Source: a virus
Lineage: Duplodnaviria > Caudoviricetes
IMG/VR virus record: IMGVR_UViG_3300020430_000003
Location: 1 to 33,850 of that record
Direction: 5' to 3' (one strand)
DNA: 33,850 nt
Below, in pieces: positions 1 through 33,850 of the stretch (position 1 is the stretch's first letter; each line of letters begins with the position of its first letter). Made by a program: the position numbers and the translations under genes. A model generated the notes under the pieces. The model searched no databases and was not told the DNA's origin. It was given only the letters and a program-made list of their open reading frames with translations.

Positions 1-77
1 AACAGATAACCCTCTGGGCCTGTTTGGCGTGTAGAAATACACCGGGCGTGGACGTATCCACGAAGCCAAAGGCCGGA
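1..77. repeat. 77-bp terminal direct repeat (copy 1); probable circular-assembly overlap
   Basis: Identical to 33774-33850; 77 is a common assembler k-mer length. Confidence 0.95.
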
Positions 78-136
78 CCTTCCGACAACCTAATACGGCG
101 ACAGATTTAACTGGTTCAAAATAGGAGCTATTAGAA
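1..136 (+). promoter_or_regulatory. Putative structured 5' leader RNA of the major capsid gene
   Basis: Stems 1-5/20-24 and 10-12/16-18; 24-28/65-69 enclosing hairpins 29-42 (GAAA loop) and 47-62; 70-72/89-91 and 74-77/81-84; SD AGGAG 123-127. Confidence 0.6.
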
Positions 137-988
137 ATGTCTACGAACCTTAGTCCAGCGTTCGTTCAGCTATTTGAAGCGGAAGTACACCAAGCCTATC
201 AAGGTGCGGCTGTTCTCCGTGGGGCTGCACGTACACGCACAGGTGTTGTTGGGGACACTGTAAAATTCCCAAAAGTTGGCAAGGGGTCAGCTTCAGTTCG
301 TGTTCCACAAACTGACGTTACACCTATCAACGCTAGTTTTTCACAGGTAAGCGTGAGTCTTACTGACTATGTGGCTGCTGAGTACAGTGATATCTTTAAT
401 CAGCAAAAAATTAACTTTGATGAGCGTCAAGAATTAGCGCAAGTCGTAGGTAATGCCATCGGACGTCGTGAAGACCAAATCATCATTGATGCACTAGATG
501 CAGCATCAGCGGGATCGACAGTGGCTAAAACTGTTGTGACTTCTGGTTCAGCAGCGGCATCAAACTTAAACGTTGGTAAAATTATCGCAGCGAAAAAAGC
601 TTTGGACGCGAAAAACGTACCACCAACAGATCGTCATTTTGTAATCCACGCTAATAACTTAGCTGGTTTGCTTGGTGATGAACGTGCGGTTTCTGGAGAC
701 TTCCAGACGCTGAGAGCGTTAGTAAGTGGCGAAATCAATACAATGATGGGCTTCCGCTTTCATGTTGTTGGTGATCGCGATGAAGACGGTCTACCGCTTT
801 CAACTAACGACCGTACAACTTTTGCTTTCCATCGTTCAGCACTTGGTGTTGGTGTTGGTATCGCTCCAAAAACTGAAATCAATTACATCCCTGAGAAAAC
901 GTCTTTCTTGGTTACCGCTATGCTCTCAATGGGTGCTGGCGCAATCGACACTGACGGGATCGTGGATGTGATCTGTGATGAGTCATAA
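137..988 (+). CDS. Major capsid protein
   Basis: 283 aa; N-terminal FVQLFEAEVHQAYQ, VKFPKVGK, and C-terminal FLVTAMLSMGAGAID..GIV are typical of podoviral HK97-fold capsids; follows scaffold gene on the circle; good SD. Confidence 0.92.
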   Translation: MSTNLSPAFVQLFEAEVHQAYQGAAVLRGAARTRTGVVGDTVKFPKVGKGSASVRVPQTDVTPINASFSQVSVSLTDYVAAEYSDIFNQQKINFDERQELAQVVGNAIGRREDQIIIDALDAASAGSTVAKTVVTSGSAAASNLNVGKIIAAKKALDAKNVPPTDRHFVIHANNLAGLLGDERAVSGDFQTLRALVSGEINTMMGFRFHVVGDRDEDGLPLSTNDRTTFAFHRSALGVGVGIAPKTEINYIPEKTSFLVTAMLSMGAGAIDTDGIVDVICDES

Positions 989-12163: not shown

Positions 12164-12178
12164 TGTACAAATACCACA
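12164..12178 (+). promoter_or_regulatory. TGTACAAA-family intergenic motif upstream of the tail fibre gene
   Basis: TGTACAAATACCACA; related copies at 18459, 27588, 27611 (minus) and 33708. Confidence 0.5.
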
Positions 12179-15299: not shown

Positions 15300-15758
15300 A
15301 TGGCAGGATACATAGGCACAGTACCAGCACCTCAAGCTACTCAGATCAGGCAGACGTTTACAGCGACTGCTTCTCAGACAACCTTTGGTACTGCTGGTTA
15401 TACGGTGGGCTTTTGCGATATCTACATGAATGGCGTCCGTCTCATAAGTGGGACAGATTTCGTCGCAAGTAATGGTTCTGAGATTGTTCTTACTACAGGG
15501 GCTGCTGCTGGGGACATCATAGACTTTATCGCTTTTACTGCTGATGACACTGCTTCAAACATGGGTGGTGGCAAGTTTAAGGGTGATCGAGGTACGTTTG
15601 GTTCTGGCGGTGCTGATATATTTAGAGTGCATGAGCAAGAGCTAAACACTGATGTAACTATAGATGCTACTGAGAATGCATTAGCTAGCGGCCCTTTGAC
15701 TGTAGCTAGTGGTGTTACCTTGACTGTCACAACAGGAGGGAACTTGTCCATTGTCTGA
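15300..15758 (+). CDS. Tail-fibre segment protein (MAGYIG paralogue 2)
   Basis: 152 aa; FTATASQTTF...IYMNGVRL...DF.A.NG..IVL module plus the C-terminal motif shared with 13802..14014. Confidence 0.7.
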   Translation: MAGYIGTVPAPQATQIRQTFTATASQTTFGTAGYTVGFCDIYMNGVRLISGTDFVASNGSEIVLTTGAAAGDIIDFIAFTADDTASNMGGGKFKGDRGTFGSGGADIFRVHEQELNTDVTIDATENALASGPLTVASGVTLTVTTGGNLSIV

Positions 15759-16125
15759 GATACGAGCAACAACAATTAGTGATGAGACAGGTAACGGCCC
15801 TATTGCTTTGACTAAGCAACATGCTGCAAAGGCTTGGGGTGATTACAATCAATCAACTAATACAGTATTAGGGAGTTTTAATATAAGCTCTGTTACTGAT
15901 TTTGCTACAGGAAGGTTTGATGCAGTTTTGGCAACAAACATGAGTTCTACAGCTTATTCTGTTGTTGCAAGTTCTATAGGTAACAATAGCTCTTATTCAA
16001 ATACTTGTTCTGATTTAGACGCTAAAGCCACTGATGGTTTACGCATGAGAGTATTTCATAATAGTTCACACGCAAGTGCTGACTTAACAACTAACTCCTT
16101 TGTTTTTCACGGAGACCTAGCATGA
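15751..16125 (+). CDS. Tail adhesin-like paralogue 1 (AKAW...GDLA family)
   Basis: AKAW, SFNISSVTD..TG, ends HGDLA; TTG start with SD AGGAGG. Confidence 0.7.
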   Translation: MSEIRATTISDETGNGPIALTKQHAAKAWGDYNQSTNTVLGSFNISSVTDFATGRFDAVLATNMSSTAYSVVASSIGNNSSYSNTCSDLDAKATDGLRMRVFHNSSHASADLTTNSFVFHGDLA

Positions 16126-16487
16126 GTACTCTAAAGGTCACAAACATCCAAGCTACAGGTGAGACAGCTAGTCGTCCAGTGTCAGGTGTTGCTGCTGCTT
16201 GGTGCAACTGGGATTACACAGGGACAGTTTTAGACAGCATTAATACATCGAGTGTTACTAATAATAGCACAGGAAATAATACGCAATCTTATACAAATTC
16301 CTTTAGTAATGCTTTCTATAGCTATTCTGGTTCTGTCTCATACGTTAGAAGATACCTTTGTGGTGCTGCTTCTACTGGAGATGGAAGTAACCAGCTATCA
16401 GGTTCTACAAGAACTGCTGTGTATACAGATAGTGGTAGTATTAGTCAAAGCCATACAAGCACAAAAACTCACGGAGACTTAGCATGA
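16122..16487 (+). CDS. Tail adhesin-like paralogue 2 (GDLA family)
   Basis: AAAW, SINTSSVT..STG, ends HGDLA; ATGA coupling. Confidence 0.7.
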   Translation: MSTLKVTNIQATGETASRPVSGVAAAWCNWDYTGTVLDSINTSSVTNNSTGNNTQSYTNSFSNAFYSYSGSVSYVRRYLCGAASTGDGSNQLSGSTRTAVYTDSGSISQSHTSTKTHGDLA

Positions 16488-16885
16488 GCAGTACTCTAAC
16501 AGTCACCAATCTTACAGCTACTAATCTCACTGATGGTGGTGGCACGACTTCTACGTTTGCTAATGTTGTTGATGGGTCTATAAAAGCTTACTCAGAACAA
16601 GACAACACTGGAGTTACGGTTAACCAATCTCTTAATCAAAGCTCTATTACTGATGTCACTACAGGACACAAAGTACACACTTGGACAACAGCTTTTTCAA
16701 CTAACACTTATCTTGGCTTAGTTGGTCTAATAGGTAATAGAAATTCAACTACAGGTACAGTTAGAGGAGTTATGCCAGATGGTGCTTGGACAACAACAGC
16801 AGCAGATGTTCGTTACTCATATGCTCCAAGCACTGTTAGTGACGATACTCAAGCTGGTATGGCTGTAGTAGGAGACTTAGCATGA
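16484..16885 (+). CDS. Tail adhesin-like paralogue 3 (GDLA family)
   Basis: IKAY, SLNQSSITD..TG, ends GDLA; ATGA coupling. Confidence 0.7.
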   Translation: MSSTLTVTNLTATNLTDGGGTTSTFANVVDGSIKAYSEQDNTGVTVNQSLNQSSITDVTTGHKVHTWTTAFSTNTYLGLVGLIGNRNSTTGTVRGVMPDGAWTTTAADVRYSYAPSTVSDDTQAGMAVVGDLA

Positions 16886-17280
16886 GTACAATCAATGTCT
16901 CCAATATTAGCGATGGCACAAAAACTGTAGCGACCACAAATGTAACTAATGGTTCTGCAAAAGCATATGTTACTTTTAATGGAGTAAATTTAACTATTGC
17001 CACTGATAAAACTGGAGTTGATCAAAGTTTCAATATTAGTTCTGTTGTAGATGTTGCGGTAGGCAGAGGCACTGTTGGTTTTACAAATGCTATGTCTAGT
17101 TCTTACCATTGTTCTACAGCGAGTGCTGGTGATGCAAGTTCAAGTGCTGCTAGAAATATTATGGTTAATGATGGTTTAGCTAATACAACAACTACATGTC
17201 GTTTTCATATCGAAAACCATTCTAATACATTAGGCGATGCTGAGTATACAGGTATAGTAACACAAGGAGACTTAGCATGA
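16882..17280 (+). CDS. Tail adhesin-like paralogue 4 (GDLA family)
   Basis: AKAY, SFNISSVVD...G, ends GDLA; ATGA coupling. Confidence 0.7.
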   Translation: MSTINVSNISDGTKTVATTNVTNGSAKAYVTFNGVNLTIATDKTGVDQSFNISSVVDVAVGRGTVGFTNAMSSSYHCSTASAGDASSSAARNIMVNDGLANTTTTCRFHIENHSNTLGDAEYTGIVTQGDLA

Positions 17281-17690
17281 CTCACGGACATCTTTGGGAT
17301 AGATTAGCAGAAGCTAAGACAAGACTAAAACCTGTACAGTCTAAGTACAGAGTATTGTTCGAAGACCCAGCCACACCAGACGAACCAGCCAAGGTTCTAT
17401 GCCCTGATCCTAACTGGATGGCTTGTGCATTGGAGGGTGGGATACTGCCACCTATAGAGACTTATCAGCGTGACCGTTTAGTTCCTGATGGACAGCCTAA
17501 GGAGCATCCATACGCTAAACCTATTGGTGCTATGACAGAAGAAGAAGCAATAGAATACTTAATTCAAAAGGATATAGATCCGTCAGTATGGCGAGACTAT
17601 AAAGGAAACAGAACGATCATGAAGATTGTACCTGTCGAACTGATCCCTAGTGATCGATCATTTAGAAACGCATGGAGAATTATGCAATGA
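17277..17690 (+). CDS. Hypothetical protein, probable tail assembly factor
   Basis: 137 aa, ends P.DR.FRNAW; coupled to the GDLA array. Confidence 0.65.
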   Translation: MTHGHLWDRLAEAKTRLKPVQSKYRVLFEDPATPDEPAKVLCPDPNWMACALEGGILPPIETYQRDRLVPDGQPKEHPYAKPIGAMTEEEAIEYLIQKDIDPSVWRDYKGNRTIMKIVPVELIPSDRSFRNAWRIMQ

Positions 17691-18037
17691 CTACAACTTA
17701 CATCAATATAAATGGAGATGTCAGAGATGCATCTTCTCTAACTATACCTAGCGACAGAACCTTTAGAGAGGCTTGGCAGTATAACGAAAATGTTATTGAG
17801 ATTAACATGACTAAAGCAAAAGAAATTCACAGAGATAATCTCAGAGCAGAACGTGCGCCACGTTTAGAAGCACTAGATGTATCTTACATGAAAGCTTTAG
17901 AGGCTGGCTCAGGTGCAGCAGAGATAGCTACACAAAAGCAAACTTTACGTGACATCATAGCAGATGCTCGTATTGATAATGCAGCAGATGCTGACGCACT
18001 CAAAGCATTGGATTTGGCTACACTCTTAGGAGAGTAA
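17687..18037 (+). CDS. Hypothetical protein, probable tail assembly chaperone
   Basis: PSDRTFREAW, then AKEIH...LR..R...L..LD...KQ.LRD chaperone-like pattern. Confidence 0.6.
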   Translation: MTTTYININGDVRDASSLTIPSDRTFREAWQYNENVIEINMTKAKEIHRDNLRAERAPRLEALDVSYMKALEAGSGAAEIATQKQTLRDIIADARIDNAADADALKALDLATLLGE

Positions 18038-18038
18038 T

Positions 18039-18425
18039 ATGTCTAGAGCTAAGAACTTAGCTAACTTTCAGACTACGATTACTGATGGCACAACTTCAGT
18101 AGCTACTAGTACAGCAGTAGACGCTGTAAAAAATGGTGCTGCAAAGGCTTGGGCTAATGCTGATGGTACAGGAACAATAGCTTTAAGAGACAGTTTAAAT
18201 ACAAGTAGTATTACGGATTATAGCACAGGTCTAGTGCAGTTTAATTTTACAAATAATTTTGCAAACACAAATTATTGTCAAAGTTCAACTACAAATAACT
18301 GGCATTCGTATATGTCTCATGGAGGTAAAACTGTAAGCGAAACTTTTACTGTTGCAGGAAATAGTTCTCATTCTGCAACAGATAGCGCACAAATGAATTA
18401 TATAGCCCACGGAGACCTAGCCTAG
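18039..18425 (+). CDS. Tail adhesin-like paralogue 5 (GDLA family)
   Basis: MSRAKNLA start, AKAW, SLNTSSITD.STG, ends HGDLA. Confidence 0.7.
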   Translation: MSRAKNLANFQTTITDGTTSVATSTAVDAVKNGAAKAWANADGTGTIALRDSLNTSSITDYSTGLVQFNFTNNFANTNYCQSSTTNNWHSYMSHGGKTVSETFTVAGNSSHSATDSAQMNYIAHGDLA

Positions 18426-20938: not shown

Positions 20939-21138
20939 TGGCTAAGTTTGATGGTATCCCGGGCGCAAGCAAGTTTTCTAAGGATAAACTAAACAAGGTG
21001 TATCGCAGAGGTTTGGGGGCGTACTATTCTCAGGGTAGTAGACCAAAGACTTCGGCCCACCAGTGGGCGATGGGCCGTGTCAAATCTTTTGTCAGTGGTA
21101 AAGGTGGTGCCAGAAAAGCTGACAAAGACCTTCTATAA
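20938..21138 (+). CDS. Small basic protein, DUF5824-like
   Basis: L.KVY.RGLGAY...G.RP....QWA..RV.SF....ADKDL pattern, recalled from marine phage/giant virus proteins. Confidence 0.55.
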   Translation: MAKFDGIPGASKFSKDKLNKVYRRGLGAYYSQGSRPKTSAHQWAMGRVKSFVSGKGGARKADKDLL

Positions 21139-21369
21139 AATACGAATACCTCGGGGTGTGTAGGGCATGATCTCTATCCACCCACGTTTCTGCAAGTTTT
21201 TCAACAAGGCATGAACATTACTTTCCACCCGTTTTTGTAGGACGGTTTGCCCGTCTATCTTTCCTTGAGCTATTTCCCGGGTTGACGGGAACACTCCGTA
21301 GGTATTGTGGTAGGCTCGTAGAAACTCATACACTTCCTTCTGTCGTGCAGTTAATCCTATCTTATCCAT
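21133..21369 (-). CDS. Stand-alone LexA-type winged-helix DNA-binding protein
   Basis: LTARQKEVYEFL......G..PSTREIA...VH..L..L..RG.I.....RGIRIL; no peptidase domain. Confidence 0.85.
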   Translation of the reverse strand: MDKIGLTARQKEVYEFLRAYHNTYGVFPSTREIAQGKIDGQTVLQKRVESNVHALLKNLQKRGWIEIMPYTPRGIRIL

Positions 21370-22318
21370 TTTCTTTTTCCTCAATGCTTAAGCCAGCGTT
21401 GTACTGCTTGCGTTTATCTTTTAATTCTTGAACCATATCGTCAGGTAATGTGGCGAAAGTGTCAGTGTTCTCTTGTTCTAACTCTTTCATTTTGGTACGA
21501 CGAACTGCCGGAGTAAGACTTGAAGCCCTACGAACTGCCAACAACAAATCGTTATAGGCATCCATATAATCGAGTGGTTGCTGATACGTCGTTGGTTCTT
21601 TGTTCGGAACGTAGAGTTTAAAATCCTCTGCAACGATAGCTTCCGTTTTCTCTGGCACGATATTTTCAAGATACTTATCAAACTGTGATACGGGTTCCGC
21701 TTGCACAACTTCAGCTTCCTCGACCTGTGGTTCAGTCAAAGCCTCAAGCGTCGGCGCAGCCACAGCTTCTTGTGTCGGTGTTACATCCTTCGGCTCATCA
21801 TAGTCCTGTGCCTCTTCAGCAGAGATAAGACCGTGTATGACGTCAGGGAAAGCATCACGGATCGCGTTGCCCCTCGCCCGGTGTTGTAACATCCTCTCCG
21901 GGTAAGCCTTCCAAGTAGGTCTGTTGGATAGCCCAGCTTGCTGTGCTTGTTTCATTGAGAACGTTCTTTTAATTTCCTCAACGCTACCGTCAGAGTGTTT
22001 GCGTTTGATGATACAAGTGGCGACCCCGCCCTCTTGTGTTTCTTGTACGCCCAGACAACGACTGTCAGCACGTACCATTGCAAGTAAACTATCACCGTAC
22101 ATACTGGGCTTGCCGTTAATAACAGCGATAGACTGAAGTGCCTGAAGCGGTGCTAGACCACACTCCAAACCCCACTGTATTGCGACAAAACAATTAGCGG
22201 GTTTGCCTTGATAATCTTTTGGAACTAAAATTGATTTGCTTAATTTCTCCGCAAACTTTTCCATTTCTTCTATGGTTGTCGGCACAAGGCTTTGCCGGGT
22301 TGTAACGATATTATTCAT
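21362..22318 (-). CDS. RecT-like single-strand annealing protein
   Basis: S.LVPKDYQGKPAN..VAIQWG.E.GL.PLQALQ.IAVINGKPS..GD and W..YP.RML..RA; paired with exonuclease; start ATG 22318. Confidence 0.8.
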   Translation of the reverse strand: MNNIVTTRQSLVPTTIEEMEKFAEKLSKSILVPKDYQGKPANCFVAIQWGLECGLAPLQALQSIAVINGKPSMYGDSLLAMVRADSRCLGVQETQEGGVATCIIKRKHSDGSVEEIKRTFSMKQAQQAGLSNRPTWKAYPERMLQHRARGNAIRDAFPDVIHGLISAEEAQDYDEPKDVTPTQEAVAAPTLEALTEPQVEEAEVVQAEPVSQFDKYLENIVPEKTEAIVAEDFKLYVPNKEPTTYQQPLDYMDAYNDLLLAVRRASSLTPAVRRTKMKELEQENTDTFATLPDDMVQELKDKRKQYNAGLSIEEKENG

Positions 22319-23992: not shown

Positions 23993-24778
23993 TTATTTTT
24001 TACCTCCTTTCATTCTTAATACGTAGTTACGCACACTTGTTGGATACCACTCTGTTTTTCTAGCTAGATCCGGGTTGCGTCGTTTAGCGGGTGTAGGAAT
24101 ACCCATTTTGTTAAGCTCACGGGCTATGCCACGGTAGCTGATCTGCTGCTCTAGCAAACGTTCTATGATGGGCCATACGTCCCCTGCCCGGGCGTCTGCT
24201 TTAGCTTTGTTTACCTCTGAGCCTTTCTTTGAGGCTTCAGGTTGCTTGTCGTGTATACCAAGCTTGGTTATCTTTTTACCCGCTTTGGTAATGTGGAAGC
24301 CCTTCTCTTTGATCTCCGCTTGGATACGGTCTAAGGCTTCTTTGGTACGTTCACGGATCTTACGGCGTTCGTGCTGTGCCATCATAGCTCTCATGCTCAA
24401 GGTCATAGGGTCTGTAATGGTTGGGTCGTCAACAATGACAAGCTTCATCTTGCCTGTGCTAACTTCCTGATCAAAGAAACGGAGTGTCTCCCACATCGAA
24501 CGGCTCAAGCGGTCTAGCGAATAGATCACCATTGTTGCATTGTTTTTGCGGCAATACTCAAAGCAGTTGTGTAGCTCGTGACGTAAATGCCAGTCAGTGC
24601 CAGAGCTTACGCCCTCCTCACGGAACCACTTTACTTTATGGTCACCACCATTGAGGTAGGCTTTGATAGCCGACTCTTGGTTCTTTACATCCTGATCATC
24701 AGTACTGACCCGCACGTAAGCAGCATAGTTGCCTGTGTGCGGCGTACCGTGGTCAGGTCTGGTTTGGTAAAGTGTCAT
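23993..24778 (-). CDS. Serine recombinase (resolvase catalytic domain plus recombinase-type DNA-binding motif)
   Basis: YVRVSTDDQ (catalytic Ser), EEGVSSG, LDRLSRS, AQHERRKIRERTKEAL; C-terminal SYRGIARELNKMGIPT...W.PTSVRN. Confidence 0.92.
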   Translation of the reverse strand: MTLYQTRPDHGTPHTGNYAAYVRVSTDDQDVKNQESAIKAYLNGGDHKVKWFREEGVSSGTDWHLRHELHNCFEYCRKNNATMVIYSLDRLSRSMWETLRFFDQEVSTGKMKLVIVDDPTITDPMTLSMRAMMAQHERRKIRERTKEALDRIQAEIKEKGFHITKAGKKITKLGIHDKQPEASKKGSEVNKAKADARAGDVWPIIERLLEQQISYRGIARELNKMGIPTPAKRRNPDLARKTEWYPTSVRNYVLRMKGGKK

Positions 24779-24810: not shown

Positions 24811-24969
24811 TTAGCTTTTATGAGGTAAAGGTGTTGTTTTAAGCTCATAAAGTATTGCTCTTAACTCTGACGTAAGAGATGGATTAAAGCGTGTTTCCCC
24901 AGCAGCTTCATTTATTCGTGTAATTTCTTCACTTATTTCTGTAAGTAATGACTGAAGTTCCGTATTCAT
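24811..24969 (-). CDS. Small hypothetical protein, first gene of the leftward operon (not in ORF track)
   Basis: 52 aa MNTELQSLLTEISEEITRINEAAGETRFNPSLTSELRAILYELKTTPLPHKS; SD AGGAG. Confidence 0.6.
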   Translation of the reverse strand: MNTELQSLLTEISEEITRINEAAGETRFNPSLTSELRAILYELKTTPLPHKS

Positions 24970-25003
24970 AATTCGCTCCTATAACGTTCCTATTTCATTC
25001 CTG

Positions 25004-25066
25004 TTTACAATAGATAGCAACGTGATAGCATTTGTGCAAGACCCAGACGTAACTTTTTTTTGCACA
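25004..25066. promoter_or_regulatory. Divergent promoter/operator region
   Basis: Plus strand TTTACA-16-TAGCAT; minus strand TTGCAC-17-TATCTA; GATAGCA direct repeat at 25013 and 25024; TGTGCAA/TTGCACA inverted repeat at 25033/25060. Confidence 0.55.
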
Positions 25067-25076
25067 GGTAAATTTT

Positions 25077-25259
25077 ATGAAGACAGAAGTTATATATTTA
25101 AGGCTCAATCCACGCATAAAAGAAGCTGTTAATCTTAAAGCTTTGGATGAAGGAAAGTCTGTAAACCTATATTTACAAGACCTTATTTGTAAAGAGCTAG
25201 ACATAGAAGTTGAGCAAGAACTAAAGCTTGTTCGTCGCGCAGCGGGGCAAGTTGCGTGA
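25077..25259 (+). CDS. Ribbon-helix-helix (Arc/HicB-C-like) regulator
   Basis: IYLRLNPRIKEAV...A..EGKSVN.Y...LI matches the RHH pattern; first gene after the divergent region. Confidence 0.75.
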   Translation: MKTEVIYLRLNPRIKEAVNLKALDEGKSVNLYLQDLICKELDIEVEQELKLVRRAAGQVA

Positions 25260-25648
25260 AGTACAAAGCCAAGAAGGTAGAGCTAGATGGATACAGTTTC
25301 GACTCTATGAGCGAAGCAAAGCACTACTACTACACACTAAAACCACGGCTTGAGGCCGGGGAAATAAAAGACTTGAGGATGCAGCCAGCTTTTCGCTGCG
25401 AGATAAACGGGAGACTCATATGCAAGTACATAGCGGATTTTCAGTACATAGATTTAAACACGACTGGGCCACAGGGTCAGCACGGATGCACCATAATAGA
25501 GGATGTGAAGGGCTTCAAAACGCCAGTCTATCGCCTGAAGAAGAAAATGGTGGAAGCGATACACCTAGGTACAAAGATATTAGAAGTTTCACCGCGAGTG
25601 TATCAGTCAAAAAAGTTCTCGCTGCCATCTCACGCCGTAGTGAAATAG
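25256..25648 (+). CDS. DUF1064-like PD-(D/E)XK endonuclease (putative junction resolvase)
   Basis: KYKAKK..LDG..FDS..EA..Y, L..QP.F, Y.ADF.Y, IEDVKG.KT.VY.LKKK. Confidence 0.85.
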   Translation: MKYKAKKVELDGYSFDSMSEAKHYYYTLKPRLEAGEIKDLRMQPAFRCEINGRLICKYIADFQYIDLNTTGPQGQHGCTIIEDVKGFKTPVYRLKKKMVEAIHLGTKILEVSPRVYQSKKFSLPSHAVVK

Positions 25649-25878
25649 AGATAGACGTACTTATTGGCCCCAAACGCGATAAGATTATCATGCCGTGGCG
25701 ACAACTAGCCTACCTTCTGAGCTACGAACTCACAGGCTGTACGCTCACACAAATCGGTAAGGTCATGAAAAGGGATCACACCACCCTACTCCACGGTATC
25801 AAACAGATCAACAAACTACGTGAGCAAGACCAGTACGTAGAACTAATCTACCGGGAGCTATACCGTGAACTGTCCTGA
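25609..25878 (+). CDS. DnaA C-terminal (domain IV) DNA-binding domain; start unresolved, possibly reached by -1 frameshift
   Basis: R...I...RQLAYLL..ELT..TL.QIG....RDHTTLLHG...I matches DnaA domain IV; the ORF is formally open from 25420, but similarity begins around 25600. Confidence 0.8.
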   Translation, partial: KKVLAAISRRSEIEIDVLIGPKRDKIIMPWRQLAYLLSYELTGCTLTQIGKVMKRDHTTLLHGIKQINKLREQDQYVELIYRELYRELS

Positions 25879-26508: not shown

Positions 26509-26657
26509 CCAAGACAATCCCCTGCCCTCACTGCGACGGCGAAGGTCAATACTATACAGAAGTAGCAGTCGTGGACTACCAGCACGGCGGGTTCCTAGAT
26601 GAAGTCATAGTTGAGTGTGAGGAGTGCGACGGTTACGGGGAAATAGAACAAGACTAA
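26505..26657 (+). CDS. Small DnaJ-type zinc-finger protein (not in ORF track)
   Basis: 50 aa with CPHCDGEG and CEECDGYG; ATGA and TAATG couplings at both ends. Confidence 0.75.
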   Translation: MTKTIPCPHCDGEGQYYTEVAVVDYQHGGFLDEVIVECEECDGYGEIEQD

Positions 26658-27586
26658 TGCTAAAGTCAGAGCTAACACCAGACCCGGTCAGAGACGCACC
26701 CGAAGGTCACGGCGAAAACCAAAGCCCCGGCGCATACTCAGCACTACCGGGCAGAGCCATAGTAGACGAACGCTTCTACCAATACCCCATGACAATGGTC
26801 GTACTCGCTCATTGCTGTGGTCACGTAAACTACCACACCGCCATATTCTGGATTAACCAAAGCACCCTCGCCCGCAGAATGAACTGTACACAGCAAGCTA
26901 TATCACAGCATATGCGTAAGCTCGTACAATGGGGCTACATAGAAAAGATACGCAAGGAAGCTCCTATCAGAGCCTACGGACGCAAAGGAGCCGCATGGAG
27001 AGTTATCTATGACCCAAGAGTATCACTAGACGAAGCACTCGCCACAATTCCCTCAGACGCAGCTACACCAGAGCAACAAGCAGAGGAGGCTAAGAAGACA
27101 ATAGAACTGGCTACATCCGGGCCAAAAGGTCAAAAGAAACGGCCAACAAAGCCTGTGGATAAGTCTACAACCCACAAGCCCCAGCTTGTAGATGATGATG
27201 ACAAGTACAAGCCCCAGCTTGTGCATAGCCACAAGCCACAGCTTGTTCATAAAGACTTACATATAACGATAGATAAAGAGATTAAGGATATTGATTGCAA
27301 AAGATTATGTGAGCAATTCAGCGCGGAGATAATGAAAAGATATGGAAAGGGTTGGGTGTATGATCTAAGGCAGATGGATCTAGCCAAACAACTCTTTGGT
27401 CTCGGGTATACCGTCGAGTCATTCGGTAGAGATGCCGGGTATGTATTGGATTGGCTGGTAAAGAATAACAAGCAGCACCCAGTATCATTGCAGTATTTCA
27501 TTGCACGTAAGCAGAACAAGAAGAAAGATCACAAGACAGCAGAGGAGCATATAAAACACCTAACAAACAAGATGAGAATAAGATGA
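26657..27586 (+). CDS. Putative replication initiator (N-terminal HTH, lambda O-like layout)
   Basis: WINQSTLARRMNCTQQAISQHMRKLVQWGYIEK winged HTH; central linker encodes DNA repeats; start ATG 26657. Confidence 0.7.
   Translation: MLKSELTPDPVRDAPEGHGENQSPGAYSALPGRAIVDERFYQYPMTMVVLAHCCGHVNYHTAIFWINQSTLARRMNCTQQAISQHMRKLVQWGYIEKIRKEAPIRAYGRKGAAWRVIYDPRVSLDEALATIPSDAATPEQQAEEAKKTIELATSGPKGQKKRPTKPVDKSTTHKPQLVDDDDKYKPQLVHSHKPQLVHKDLHITIDKEIKDIDCKRLCEQFSAEIMKRYGKGWVYDLRQMDLAKQLFGLGYTVESFGRDAGYVLDWLVKNNKQHPVSLQYFIARKQNKKKDHKTAEEHIKHLTNKMRIR
27154..27290. other. Putative replication origin: DnaA box, three palindromic iterons, AT-rich tract
   Basis: TGTGGATAA (=TTATCCACA) 27154-27162; ACAAGC-N4-GCTTGT at 27174, 27207 and 27231; AT-rich 27247-27290. 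Confidence 0.7.
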
Positions 27587-27624
27587 TTGTACAAACACCA
27601 CACGGTCGGCTAGTATTTGTACAA
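27587..27624. promoter_or_regulatory. Inverted pair of TGTACAAA motifs upstream of the packaging/late operon
   Basis: TTGTACAAACAC-14 bp-GTATTTGTACAA (1 mismatch in 12). Confidence 0.55.
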
Positions 27625-27736
27625 AGGTATAGGGGGGGGTGTGCGTTACAAAAAAGGCACCTTATGCCCCCCCGCCCCCTATCGCGTAGTATAGGGGCCA
27701 CTCAAAAATATTTTGGTAAAAAACATGGAGAAGTAA

Positions 27737-30985: not shown

Positions 30986-32532
30986 TGGTATTAGACGTCA
31001 AACAAATTAAGAAACGCTTTAAGAAAGCGGAAACTCACAAAGACCAATGGCGGTCTATCTACGAAGAAGCCTACGAATATGCGCTTCCTATGCGTAACTT
31101 GTACGACGGATACTACGAGGGCAATGTCCCCGGTCAAAATAAAATGAAACGAGTGTTTGATAGTACGGCTATCCACTCAACGGCCCGGTTCGCAAACCGT
31201 ATACAATCCTCCCTGTTTCCACCACAACGAGCGTGGTGTCGGCTTCAACCGGGCCAAGAAATACCTGAAGAAAATAAAATACAAGCTCAACAAGCTCTAG
31301 ATTTCTATACAGAAAAAATGTTCGGCGTAATGGCGCAGTCTGGTTTTGACTTAGCTATGGGTGAGTTCTTACTGGATCTTGCGGTAGGAACTGCGGTCAT
31401 GCTCATACAGCCCGGAGATGAAGTAACGCCGATACGCTATACGGCTGTACCGTCCTATCACGTTTGCTTTGAGGAAGGTCCAAACGGTACGGTTGATACG
31501 GTATATCGTAAGTTTAAGCGACCTTTTAACGTTATTCAGCGCGAATGGCCTGACGCAAATATTCCTGACCATATTGTAAAAAAATATGAAGAAGATCCGA
31601 CGCAACCGTTGGAAATGATTGAGGCAACCTACACGATAGATAATCAAATCTATTATTGCTTAGTCACAGCAGAAGAAGACTTTAAACTTGTACACCGTGA
31701 CTTAAAGTCTTTTCCTTGGGTGATCTCTCGATACATGAAAGCCAGTAACGAACGTTACGGTCGTGGCCCTGTGCTATACGCTTTACCTGACATTAAGACA
31801 TTGAACAAAGTTGTTGAATTAACTTTGAAAAACGCCAGCATCAGTATCGGTGGCGTGTTTACTGCGGTCGATGATGGCGTCTTAAACCCCCAGACAATAA
31901 GCATCGTTCCCGGCGCAGTAATAGGCGTTAGCTCGAACGGTGGACCTCGAGGCCCATCCTTACAACCCCTACCCCGTTCGGGCGACGCTAACTTGACACA
32001 AATCGTTAGCAATGACTTACGTATGAACATCAAGAAAACCCTTCTTGATGAAAGCTTGCCGCCCGACAATATGTCCGCCAGAAGTGCGACTGAGATTGTA
32101 GAAAGAATGAAAGAGCTATCGCAGAACTTGGGGTCAGCGTTTGGGCGGCTCATCTCTGAAACGATGTTTCCAATCGTGCGTCGTAGCCTAGAGCTTATGG
32201 ACGAGATGGGCATGATAGAGCTACCTCTAAAGGTAAACGGACTACAAGTTAGCGTTATACCTCAATCACCTTTGGCTATGGCGTCCAACATGGACAAGCT
32301 TAACGAGGTTATGCAGTTTATGCAGATTTCCCAGATGATGGGGCCTCAAGGTCAGACATTACTGAAAATGGATCAAGTCGGTGACTACATAGCTGATCAG
32401 TTAGGTATCCCGGCTTCACTCAGAACGACGCCGCAAGAACGAGCGCAGATGCAAGAAGAGATGTTAGCAATGGCACAGATGGCGGCAGAGCAACAGGGCG
32501 TGATACCGCCTGAAGGGGAACAAATGCAATGA
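30985..32532 (+). CDS. Portal (head-tail connector) protein
   Basis: 515 aa; VFDSTA, L..GTA, YGRGP...ALPDIK.LN, SATEI.ER..E motifs of T7/BPP-1-like portals. Confidence 0.95.
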   Translation: MVLDVKQIKKRFKKAETHKDQWRSIYEEAYEYALPMRNLYDGYYEGNVPGQNKMKRVFDSTAIHSTARFANRIQSSLFPPQRAWCRLQPGQEIPEENKIQAQQALDFYTEKMFGVMAQSGFDLAMGEFLLDLAVGTAVMLIQPGDEVTPIRYTAVPSYHVCFEEGPNGTVDTVYRKFKRPFNVIQREWPDANIPDHIVKKYEEDPTQPLEMIEATYTIDNQIYYCLVTAEEDFKLVHRDLKSFPWVISRYMKASNERYGRGPVLYALPDIKTLNKVVELTLKNASISIGGVFTAVDDGVLNPQTISIVPGAVIGVSSNGGPRGPSLQPLPRSGDANLTQIVSNDLRMNIKKTLLDESLPPDNMSARSATEIVERMKELSQNLGSAFGRLISETMFPIVRRSLELMDEMGMIELPLKVNGLQVSVIPQSPLAMASNMDKLNEVMQFMQISQMMGPQGQTLLKMDQVGDYIADQLGIPASLRTTPQERAQMQEEMLAMAQMAAEQQGVIPPEGEQMQ

Positions 32533-32825
32533 GCCAAGCAGAACGTATTCGCAGCATAAACTCTCCCGGCTGGGATGGAGTTGACGCAACCATAACACAT
32601 TTAGAGATGCCCAACAGCGCACAACGGGATTTAGATATTCAGTTTAAAAGATGCTTTGACTCTGAGGCTGGTAAAAAGGTTTTAGAGCATTTGCGTACAA
32701 TAACTATTGATCAACCCGCTTGGGTGCCGGGTGCTGACCCTTCTTTTGGATACGCACGGGAAGGTCAGAATAGTTTAGTGCGTGAAATTGAACAGAGGAT
32801 AAAACGAGCGAATGAGCGAGAGTGA
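32529..32825 (+). CDS. Bbp19-like small protein
   Basis: F.S.AG.KVL.HL ... REGQ.SLV..I pattern between portal and scaffold. Confidence 0.7.
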   Translation: MSQAERIRSINSPGWDGVDATITHLEMPNSAQRDLDIQFKRCFDSEAGKKVLEHLRTITIDQPAWVPGADPSFGYAREGQNSLVREIEQRIKRANERE

Positions 32826-33624
32826 TAACCAAGAAGCCGAAGGGACAACCGAAGAAGTAGCGGCCCCTGATGGTTTGATGGCCGCAGCAGCTTTAGAAGA
32901 AGAACAAGCGGTAGAAGAAGGTGAAACTATAGAGCATCGAGCGGATGCCGAAGTAGAAGGCCAGCCCACAGAAGAAGAAACGTTTGAGCGTCCTGACTTC
33001 ATACCTGAAAAATTTTGGGATGAAAAAGAAGGGCCTGACTTAGAAAAGATGATGAAGTCTTATGATGAGCTTCAAAAACAATTTTCTCAAGGCAAACACA
33101 AAGCCCCTAAAGAATACAACACTGAGGTGCTTACAGAAGCTGGATACGAAGCTAGTGACCCGCTTGTATCTACTTATTTAGATTGGGCGCAAAAGTACGG
33201 GGTGAACCAAGCAGCATTTGACGAGCTTGCTTCTAGTATTACTGGTATGGCGGGTGAAGACATGGCGGCTGTAGAGTTAGACCTACAGCGTGAACGTGAG
33301 GCTCTCGGGCCTAATGCTAATGAAATATTAAAGTCAAATATTGATTGGGCTGATGGTTTAGAGCGTAAAGGTATTATTTCTGAGGCAGAACGGGCTGAGT
33401 TAAACATTTGGGGTGGCTCTGCTGTTGGTCAGCGTCTTATGCAAAAAGTTCGTTCTATGACTGGTGACATGTCCAAAATACCAGTCGCAGAAGTTGCTGA
33501 AGCGGGTCAAAGTGAAGATGATTTCAAAGCTTCTATGCAAGCTAAGATTGCCGACCCTCGGTATGGTTCCGACCCTGCATTTACTCGCAACGTAGAGTTG
33601 GAATATCAAAGGAGATACGGCTAG
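32812..33624 (+). CDS. Capsid assembly scaffolding protein
   Basis: Acidic N-terminus, RPDFIPEKFWD, KSY.EL.K, C-terminal DPRY..DPAF...V. Confidence 0.85.
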   Translation: MSESDNQEAEGTTEEVAAPDGLMAAAALEEEQAVEEGETIEHRADAEVEGQPTEEETFERPDFIPEKFWDEKEGPDLEKMMKSYDELQKQFSQGKHKAPKEYNTEVLTEAGYEASDPLVSTYLDWAQKYGVNQAAFDELASSITGMAGEDMAAVELDLQREREALGPNANEILKSNIDWADGLERKGIISEAERAELNIWGGSAVGQRLMQKVRSMTGDMSKIPVAEVAEAGQSEDDFKASMQAKIADPRYGSDPAFTRNVELEYQRRYG

Positions 33625-33670
33625 CCTGTAGTCGTATAATTAGGAGTTTTTCACTGCTCTCTCCTAAACT

Positions 33671-33706
33671 AGCCCTCGCTTCCGTTTCCCGGCGAGGGCT
33701 TTTTAT
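33671..33706 (+). terminator. Rho-independent terminator after the scaffold gene
   Basis: AGCCCTCGC (33671-33679) pairs with GCGAGGGCT (33692-33700), followed by TTTTAT. Confidence 0.8.
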
Positions 33707-33738
33707 ATGTACAAATACTACACCTAGCATCTAATATG

Positions 33739-33767
33739 TTTACAAGCTACAGCTTGTAGTGTATCGT
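33739..33767 (+). promoter_or_regulatory. Putative sigma70-type capsid promoter with an operator palindrome in the spacer
   Basis: TTTACA (33739-44), 17 bp, TATCGT (33762-67); TACAAGCT-AC-AGCTTGTA at 33741-33758. Confidence 0.55.
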
Positions 33768-33773
33768 TTTGAT

Positions 33774-33850
33774 AACAGATAACCCTCTGGGCCTGTTTGG
33801 CGTGTAGAAATACACCGGGCGTGGACGTATCCACGAAGCCAAAGGCCGGA
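33774..33850. repeat. 77-bp terminal direct repeat (copy 2)
   Basis: Identical to 1-77. Confidence 0.95.

Follow-up and report, generated by a model that had tools for sequence, protein, structure and literature searches.

The window, meaning the whole 33,850-nucleotide stretch analysed here, is a complete circular genome of 33,773 bp from a marine podophage, its two ends overlapping by 77 bp. Profile searches identified a T7-like portal, scaffold and capsid module, terminase genes, RecE/RecT and a serine recombinase, with further genes for a LexA-like DNA-binding protein and a DnaA-domain protein. Among cultured phages, Methylophilales phage MEP301 has the nearest capsid (61%), and HTVC010P-type pelagiphages and MEP301-type OM43 phages carry the same sort of head, portal and tail module; MEP301 also carries a resolvase, a YqaJ recombinase and an SSB (available part of PMC8024684). 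The only sequence found in a genome collection was a 1.8-kb contig within a metagenome-assembled gammaproteobacterial bin, too short for naming a host. Five paralogous small tail-region genes lie in tandem at 15751-18425, with a CACGGAGACCTAGCATGAGTA-type junction of 21 bp recurring between them. An Rfam search of the window found nothing, and two RNA runs gave nothing on 32400-33850, a result that is uninformative either way.

The predicted capsid promoter and its palindrome

The region between the scaffold gene and the capsid gene, which runs through the end overlap, holds the following features.

33671..33704, + strand: terminator-like hairpin with a T run, following the scaffold gene (−18.3 kcal/mol, z −4.4)
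33708..33721, + strand: upstream motif TGTACAAATACTAC, which belongs to a genome-wide family
33739..33744, + strand: predicted −35 hexamer TTTACA; the operator begins with the last three of these bases
33742..33757: putative iteron-like operator ACAAGC-TACA-GCTTGT, predicted to span −32 to −17 in the capsid promoter
33762..33767, + strand: predicted −10 hexamer TATCGT, 17 bp past the −35
1..136, + strand: structured leader of the capsid gene, with 1-77 repeating 33774-33850 and the first helix starting from the predicted +1
137..988, + strand: major capsid protein gene (PF19821, E 4.5e-68; phrog_3437, E 1.2e-48)

TTTACA / 17 bp / TATCGT is the sole sigma-70-like promoter in 33400-33850, and the capsid gene lies across the 77-bp end overlap from it. 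The palindrome shares ACA with the −35 hexamer and then fills most of the 17-bp spacer. The initial annotation had placed it over a putative −35 and spacer; the position stands, while the promoter itself is a prediction that, as a single hit, is no better than chance (0.6 expected), so the call leans on conservation. Anchoring on the promoter worked for 141 of 155 fetched capsid-gene loci, among which 96 promoters are distinct; the other 14 have too short an upstream sequence or a different −35 region. The −35 hexamer is near-invariant in promoters with and without the palindrome, partly by construction, as the loci were anchored on it. Among the 66 promoters that bear the site, the −10 place reads TAT, CAT or TAA in 63, and the spacer is 17 bp, as in the window, in 63. 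The leader structure begins 6–7 bases past the −10 hexamer, which would put the transcription start near 33774 and the palindrome at about −32 to −17. MerR-type activators seated in the spacer require 19–20 bp between −35 and −10; the 17-bp spacer does not fit such a site, which was set aside.

The exact pattern ACAAGC-N4-GCTTGT occurs at 27174, 27207, 27231 and 33742, confirming that the promoter palindrome shares the 6-4-6 pattern of the origin repeats. No other copies had been noticed at the outset, and with up to one mismatch the same four remain the only ones (0.09 expected; 0 of 100 shuffles gave four). Allowing two mismatches adds a fifth copy at 24438, a total near chance (5 seen, 1.8 expected). 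No other spaced palindrome with arms of 6 bp recurs at separate places in the genome, and at the promoter the 6-4-6 pattern is enclosed in a perfect 18-bp inverted repeat (33741-33758). A loose ACAAGA-CCTT-ATTTGT at 25175-25190, inside a 60-aa gene, is the sole other ACAA-N8-TTGT in the window; this one excepted, there is no 6-4-6 site at the start of the initiator operon or upstream of it. As RNA, the palindrome folds at −8.1 kcal/mol (z −1.8; 12 of 200 shuffles), which is not unusual. An intrinsic terminator was rejected on this z score, on the AGTGTATC that follows the palindrome, and on position 6/11, which is often unpaired in relatives.

Across the 96 distinct promoters, ACAA-N8-TTGT is present in 66 and absent from 30. 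The left ACAA occurs whether or not a promoter has the site, so the signal resides in the right arm and the inner bases, and because the promoter fixes the left ACAA only eight bases of the arms can vary freely (a chance per promoter of about 1.1e-5). The register of the site on the −35 is identical in 66/66 promoters, which is partly forced, as TTTACAA supplies a half-site. On a capsid tree of 90 rows, the site appears in 60/63 rows of the main clade and 0/27 of the distant clade. A similar terminator-like element accompanies 39/66 site-bearing promoters against 0/30 site-less ones; such a hairpin would shield the capsid promoter against transcription running in from upstream.

The leader shows double-sided changes in 15/28 pairs among 12 sequences, with a multi-helix structure and a repeated GA(T/C)AACC word; it had no Rfam match at E ≤ 1, and it is possibly a translational autoregulation element. 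It had been proposed that the capsid gene is under three layers of control. The proposal holds in part only: the leader is a co-varying structure, and TGTACAAA turned out to be a genome-wide element at no fewer than five gene boundaries. In the form TGTACAAnWMCYAR it lies at gene boundaries at 12164, 18459, 27588 (+), 27623 (−) and 33708, with weaker copies at 25033 and 26069, and several relatives hold 5–8 copies. The copies at 27588 and 27623 form an inverted pair directly after the initiator gene, and none was found at threshold before the capsid gene in G004, G005 and G009. The motif looks like the left half of the iteron together with its spacer; because it does not clearly follow residue 84 of the initiator (see below), it is not treated here as a site of the initiator.

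A probable initiator gene with an internal origin

The other three copies of the palindrome lie in the middle of a second gene, with these features.

26657..27586, + strand: probable replication initiator gene, with an N-terminal winged helix, a repeat-carrying unstructured linker and a helical C-terminal domain
26891..26929, + strand: predicted recognition helix, residues 79-91 of a structural model (Gln84 codon, 26906-26908)
27154..27162, − strand: DnaA box TTATCCACA, just before repeat 1, called by the DnaA-box consensus
27174..27189: origin repeat 1, ACAAGC-CCCA-GCTTGT
27207..27222: origin repeat 2, ACAAGC-CCCA-GCTTGT
27231..27246: origin repeat 3, ACAAGC-CACA-GCTTGT
27247..27310: AT-rich tract (75% A+T) at a local minimum of cumulative GC skew

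From its profile matches and layout, ORF 26657-27586 is likely a lambda-O-like initiator with an internal origin. All 11 of 11 aligned initiators matched phrog_270 (best E 4.8e-13) and the O-like phrog_391 (best E 1.1e-9); the window's initiator alone reached only E 5e-6 and 2e-4, respectively. Its N-terminus gave HTH_36 and MarR-type hits, and the model has helices at 68-75 and 79-91 plus a wing. Matches to winged-helix folds (Z 7–8.3, rmsd about 2, 62–80 aligned) are at the level of a common fold; Foldseek on solved structures gave nothing at E ≤ 0.001, and a PDB sequence search gave weak winged-helix hits only. There was no lambda O chain among the structure or PDB sequence matches, which excludes nothing, and among cultured phages the initiator had no match beyond one hit at E 0.8. 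The genes that follow encode an SSB-like ORF and the terminase small subunit, and a scan of 17 ORFs, a subset of those in the genome, gave no hit for P-, DnaC- or DnaB-like genes.

The 434 repressor, a cI protein with 14-bp operators that overlap promoter boxes, has a helix that opens with two glutamines, with a third a few residues on, and reads an ACAA half-site. Its likeness to the present case, in the glutamines of the recognition helix and the ACAA half-site, is a lead only; no 434 chain was among the structure or PDB sequence matches.

Internal repeats are present in 156/161 distinct initiator genes, mostly spaced by 24, 33/34 or 44/45. In the 139 genes with 16-bp sites they fall in all three reading frames (309/32/29), with more than one frame used in 59/139. 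A constraint on a repeated peptide is thereby rejected, and the use of all three frames argues that the repeats are selected as DNA elements. The exact DnaA-box 9-mer was found in 104/156 origin windows but in 0/3716 control windows. The AT-rich tract is likely the unwinding element; A+T after repeat 3 is 75% in the window, and the mean in relatives is 63%. Further downstream, the gap between the initiator and SSB genes (27633-27715) holds G-run/C-run hairpins followed by CACAAAAATATTTT-like text. These hairpins are kept in 11/11 loci inspected, with a similar arrangement in MEP301, and are candidates for a packaging site, a terminator or a late promoter.

Residue 84, the origin repeats and the promoter site among relatives

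Near-complete relatives were scanned with a looser pattern, ACAAS-N7-TTGT. Exactly three origin sites and one promoter site were found in G001, G006 and G007; G004 and G010 have both kinds of site, as do G005 and G009 with 2–3 strays. Origin sites only were found in G002 and G003 (one stray in G003), and G008 has none. Among close relatives, the promoter site is absent from L022, L042, L120, L226 and L235. The origin repeats are intact in L022, L120, L226 and L235 (the initiator of L042 was not seen), and L022 and L235 retain a similar promoter.

The sites at the two places share more than their arms. Position 6/11 cannot pair in 18/66 promoters (G·G in 7, A·G in 4, A·C in 4, C·C in 3), with C·T in 2 and T·T in 1 besides, and mismatches are likewise tolerated there in origin sites. 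Both kinds of site combine this tolerant position with an asymmetric spacer, Y-N-C-A (117 origin and 43 promoter sites), although the shared-spacer result is inflated by orienting the sites by their spacers.

Base 5 of the half-site in origins follows residue 84 of the predicted recognition helix, as tallied over the 156 of 161 distinct initiator genes. Initiators with Gln84 have G (593/624), those with Arg or Lys have C (138/138 and 28/28, respectively), and those with Glu or His have G (18/18 and 22/38). We infer that residue 84 reads base pair 5/12. The combination of Arg or Lys with C arose on two separate branches of a tree built without residue 84 and without the linker; as helix and repeats lie in one gene and are inherited together, this correlation counts as two events only. 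One Arg lineage is nested among Gln initiators with support 99, albeit in a quick tree.

The promoter site, which lies outside the initiator gene, changes with them in this nested lineage. L096 and L236, the nested-Arg loci that reach the capsid gene, have the promoter site ACAACC-TCCA-GGTTGT and origins ACAACA-N4-GGTTGT, and nine loci with C-G promoter sites form one clade within the G-C loci on a scaffold tree (support 99). Of 51 distinct loci that hold both genes, those with Gln comprise 36 G-C, 4 G-A and 2 without a site; the nested Arg loci are C-G (2/2), the distant-clade Arg loci lack the site (6/6), and the one His locus is G-T. Four more loci with unanchored promoters were left out, none with a site by eye. 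An own-versus-other match over 12 lineages gave p = 0.0055, rising to 0.063 without the Arg lineage, so the covariation of promoter and origin amounts to one clean event, comprising both arms of four sites and one amino acid. The initial annotation had proposed checking in relatives whether repeats and promoter palindrome co-vary; they do so once, in the nested Arg lineage, together with residue 84. As to the suggestion that the initiator acts on the capsid gene, this joint change argues for its recognition of the site.

A second event in L163-L168 (GATTGT at both places) looked good by eye and failed in the lineage matrix. L331 (Leu84), found when seeking a further switch in the L017 lineage, has G-C origin repeats and an A-T promoter site, a mismatch that lost specificity would explain only after the fact. 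The distant Arg/Lys clades have ACAAC origins and no site at the −35 place of the capsid gene (L061 and L296 by eye). In the distant Arg/Lys loci L049, L053 and L253-L276, the ACAAC…GTTGT origin sites span 15, 17 or 18 bp, not 16, and L269, L067 and L076 have a perfect 15-bp ACAAC…GTTGT upstream of the capsid −35. The one in L269, ACAAC-N5-GTTGT, lies about 30 bp further upstream and resembles one of its own origin sites.

Other phage proteins that could bind the site were compared with the initiator.

21133-21384, − strand: LexA-like protein gene
25420-25878: stand-alone DnaA domain IV protein (PF08299, E 1.6e-14)

The LexA-like gene, which lacks a protease domain and has a variable helix as in an immunity-type regulator, is present in 9/10 near-complete relatives and missing from G008, itself without the 16-bp site. 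Its predicted recognition helix differs widely among genomes with identical sites. The DnaA-domain protein, which could aid or compete with host DnaA, has an RDH[S/T]T-type helix in Gln and Arg lineages alike, and a short protein encoded at 25077-25259 was found in only 2/10 near-complete relatives. At 24969-25077, TGATAGCA-type direct repeats and an inverted pair TGTGCAA…TTGCACA lie in what appears to be a divergent region of early control; the 60-aa gene that follows looks ribbon-helix-helix-like by eye. By this comparison of sequences, the initiator alone among the phage DNA-binding proteins tracks the promoter site.

A proposed link between replication and capsid expression

Taken from sequence comparison, it is very probable that the initiator binds the promoter palindrome as well as the origin repeats, and somewhat probable that it represses the capsid promoter when bound. 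In the mechanism we propose, a lambda-O-like initiator would bind the same 16-bp palindrome at two places, the capsid promoter and the three repeats in its own gene. At the promoter, a dimer with its centre near −24.5 would cover half of the −35 hexamer, clash with sigma-70 and block RNA polymerase, keeping capsid transcription low until free initiator falls. An early brake would be needed because the capsid gene's own promoter, host-type and placed behind a terminator, would otherwise fire at once upon infection. Repression is favoured because half of the −35 is covered, the 17-bp spacer is optimal and loss of the site leaves a similar promoter. Relief could come from titration by new origin clusters, from decay of the initiator or from shut-off of its operon. 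Titration is possible by analogy with lambda O and RepE, for which extra iterons compete; its weak point is that every new genome also adds an initiator gene and a promoter site, and for the former reason decay or shut-off may matter more.

A wider scheme, which we put forward tentatively and hold to be on the doubtful side, makes the initiator a timer of late genes. Through the full iteron it would shut the capsid promoter until replicated origin clusters titrate it away. The weaker elements of the TGTACAA type, which precede terminase, tail-fibre and lysis-side genes, would be its low-affinity sites, so that one genome-counting protein frees the whole late programme; the code at residue 84 would have Gln read G and Arg or Lys read C.

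The covariation would look identical if the bound initiator activated the promoter, so that capsid is made once initiator accumulates, as with parvovirus NS1. The imperfect −10 suits such a role, lambda O contacts the beta subunit of RNA polymerase (available part of PMC3017604), and NS1 binds both the origin and P38 and activates P38 (available part of PMC10194145). Activation is nonetheless unlikely, given the covered half of the −35, the optimal 17-bp spacer and the similar promoter kept without the site by L022 and L235, which fits a lost brake better than the loss of a needed activator. It is also quite unlikely that the bound lone site serves replication instead, by looping with the origin or soaking up initiator, with capsid transcription clearing it; the signal would then run from the capsid promoter to the origin, as with incC of plasmid F. 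Looping and titration by extra iterons are described for F (available part of PMC13028717), and extra iterons compete for lambda O (available part of PMC3985674), but here there is a single site and no cluster, and it keeps one register on the −35 in 66/66 promoters, though TTTACAA forces this in part.

The two remaining readings dispense with the initiator. The promoter palindrome might be an RNA hairpin, a cruciform or a leftover copy with no binder, its match to the origin being history or chance. It does fold (−8.1 kcal/mol) and was called terminator-like in a promoter scan, a hairpin would also survive the change from G-C to C-G, and several lineages have lost the site. The fold is not unusual (z −1.8), however, and lies past the terminator but short of the predicted start; position 6/11 is unpairable in 18/66 promoters, as in origin sites; and a hairpin gives no reason why three origin repeats at a distance of 6.5 kb changed in the same way. 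We regard this reading as very unlikely, and least likely of all is another binder at both places, whether the LexA-like, DnaA-domain or short 25077-25259 protein or a host factor. The presence of the LexA-like gene in 9/10 relatives and its absence from the site-less G008 would suit the first of these, but its helix varies, the helix of the DnaA-domain protein is constant and the short protein occurs in 2/10; a host factor would leave the base switch that follows residue 84 on two branches unexplained.

Initiators are already known as regulators of transcription in plasmids and eukaryotic viruses. P1 RepA is a plasmid iteron initiator that acts as a repressor. Likewise, RepE of plasmid F is both initiator and repressor, acting through inverted repeats at a promoter, and is titrated by iterons (available part of PMC13028717). 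As with RepE, the putative initiator site here overlaps the predicted promoter boxes; plasmid initiators repress their own gene, however, and here the target would be an unrelated late structural gene 6.5 kb away. Parvovirus NS1 recognises one short repeat in two places, the origin and the P38 capsid promoter, and regulates capsid expression (available part of PMC10194145). It is a nickase-helicase of a eukaryotic ssDNA virus, activates through host factors and shares no homology, in contrast to the predicted winged-helix dimer site on a bacterial −35 box, which is likely repressing. In lambda, the O dimer binds repeats in the middle of its gene, with DnaA boxes nearby (available part of PMC3985674). 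Both phages thus have their origins in the middle of the initiator gene, with three 16-bp sites here against four 19-bp sites in lambda, and here no P-like loader was identified adjacent; the additional site at the capsid promoter has no counterpart reported for lambda in the available part of PMC3985674.

Turning to cultured relatives, the capsid promoter of MEP301 has no such site, and 'promoter' is absent from the available main texts on HTVC010P-type (PMC8477408) and MEP301-type (PMC8024684) phages, the available parts of which also do not address the delay of late genes. The HTVC010P-type paper names the DnaA-domain protein as a possible initiator (available part of PMC8477408). The literature searched, which leaves most subscription journals out of reach, held no precedent for a tailed-phage initiator on a capsid promoter.

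The present analysis names a likely initiator and origin for a widespread group of uncultured phages, for which the published annotation of related phages, in its available part, had favoured the DnaA-domain protein. The natural pair of Gln and Arg initiators with matching G-C and C-G sites makes a ready swap system that needs no cultured host. To our knowledge, this type of small marine podophage does not encode an RNA polymerase. Elsewhere, late genes are controlled by the T4 clamp or by a dedicated late activator, and neither would be needed in the link proposed here. An initiator site on the capsid promoter would be a direct answer to how late genes are delayed, in which one protein and one 16-bp word may tie replication to head synthesis.
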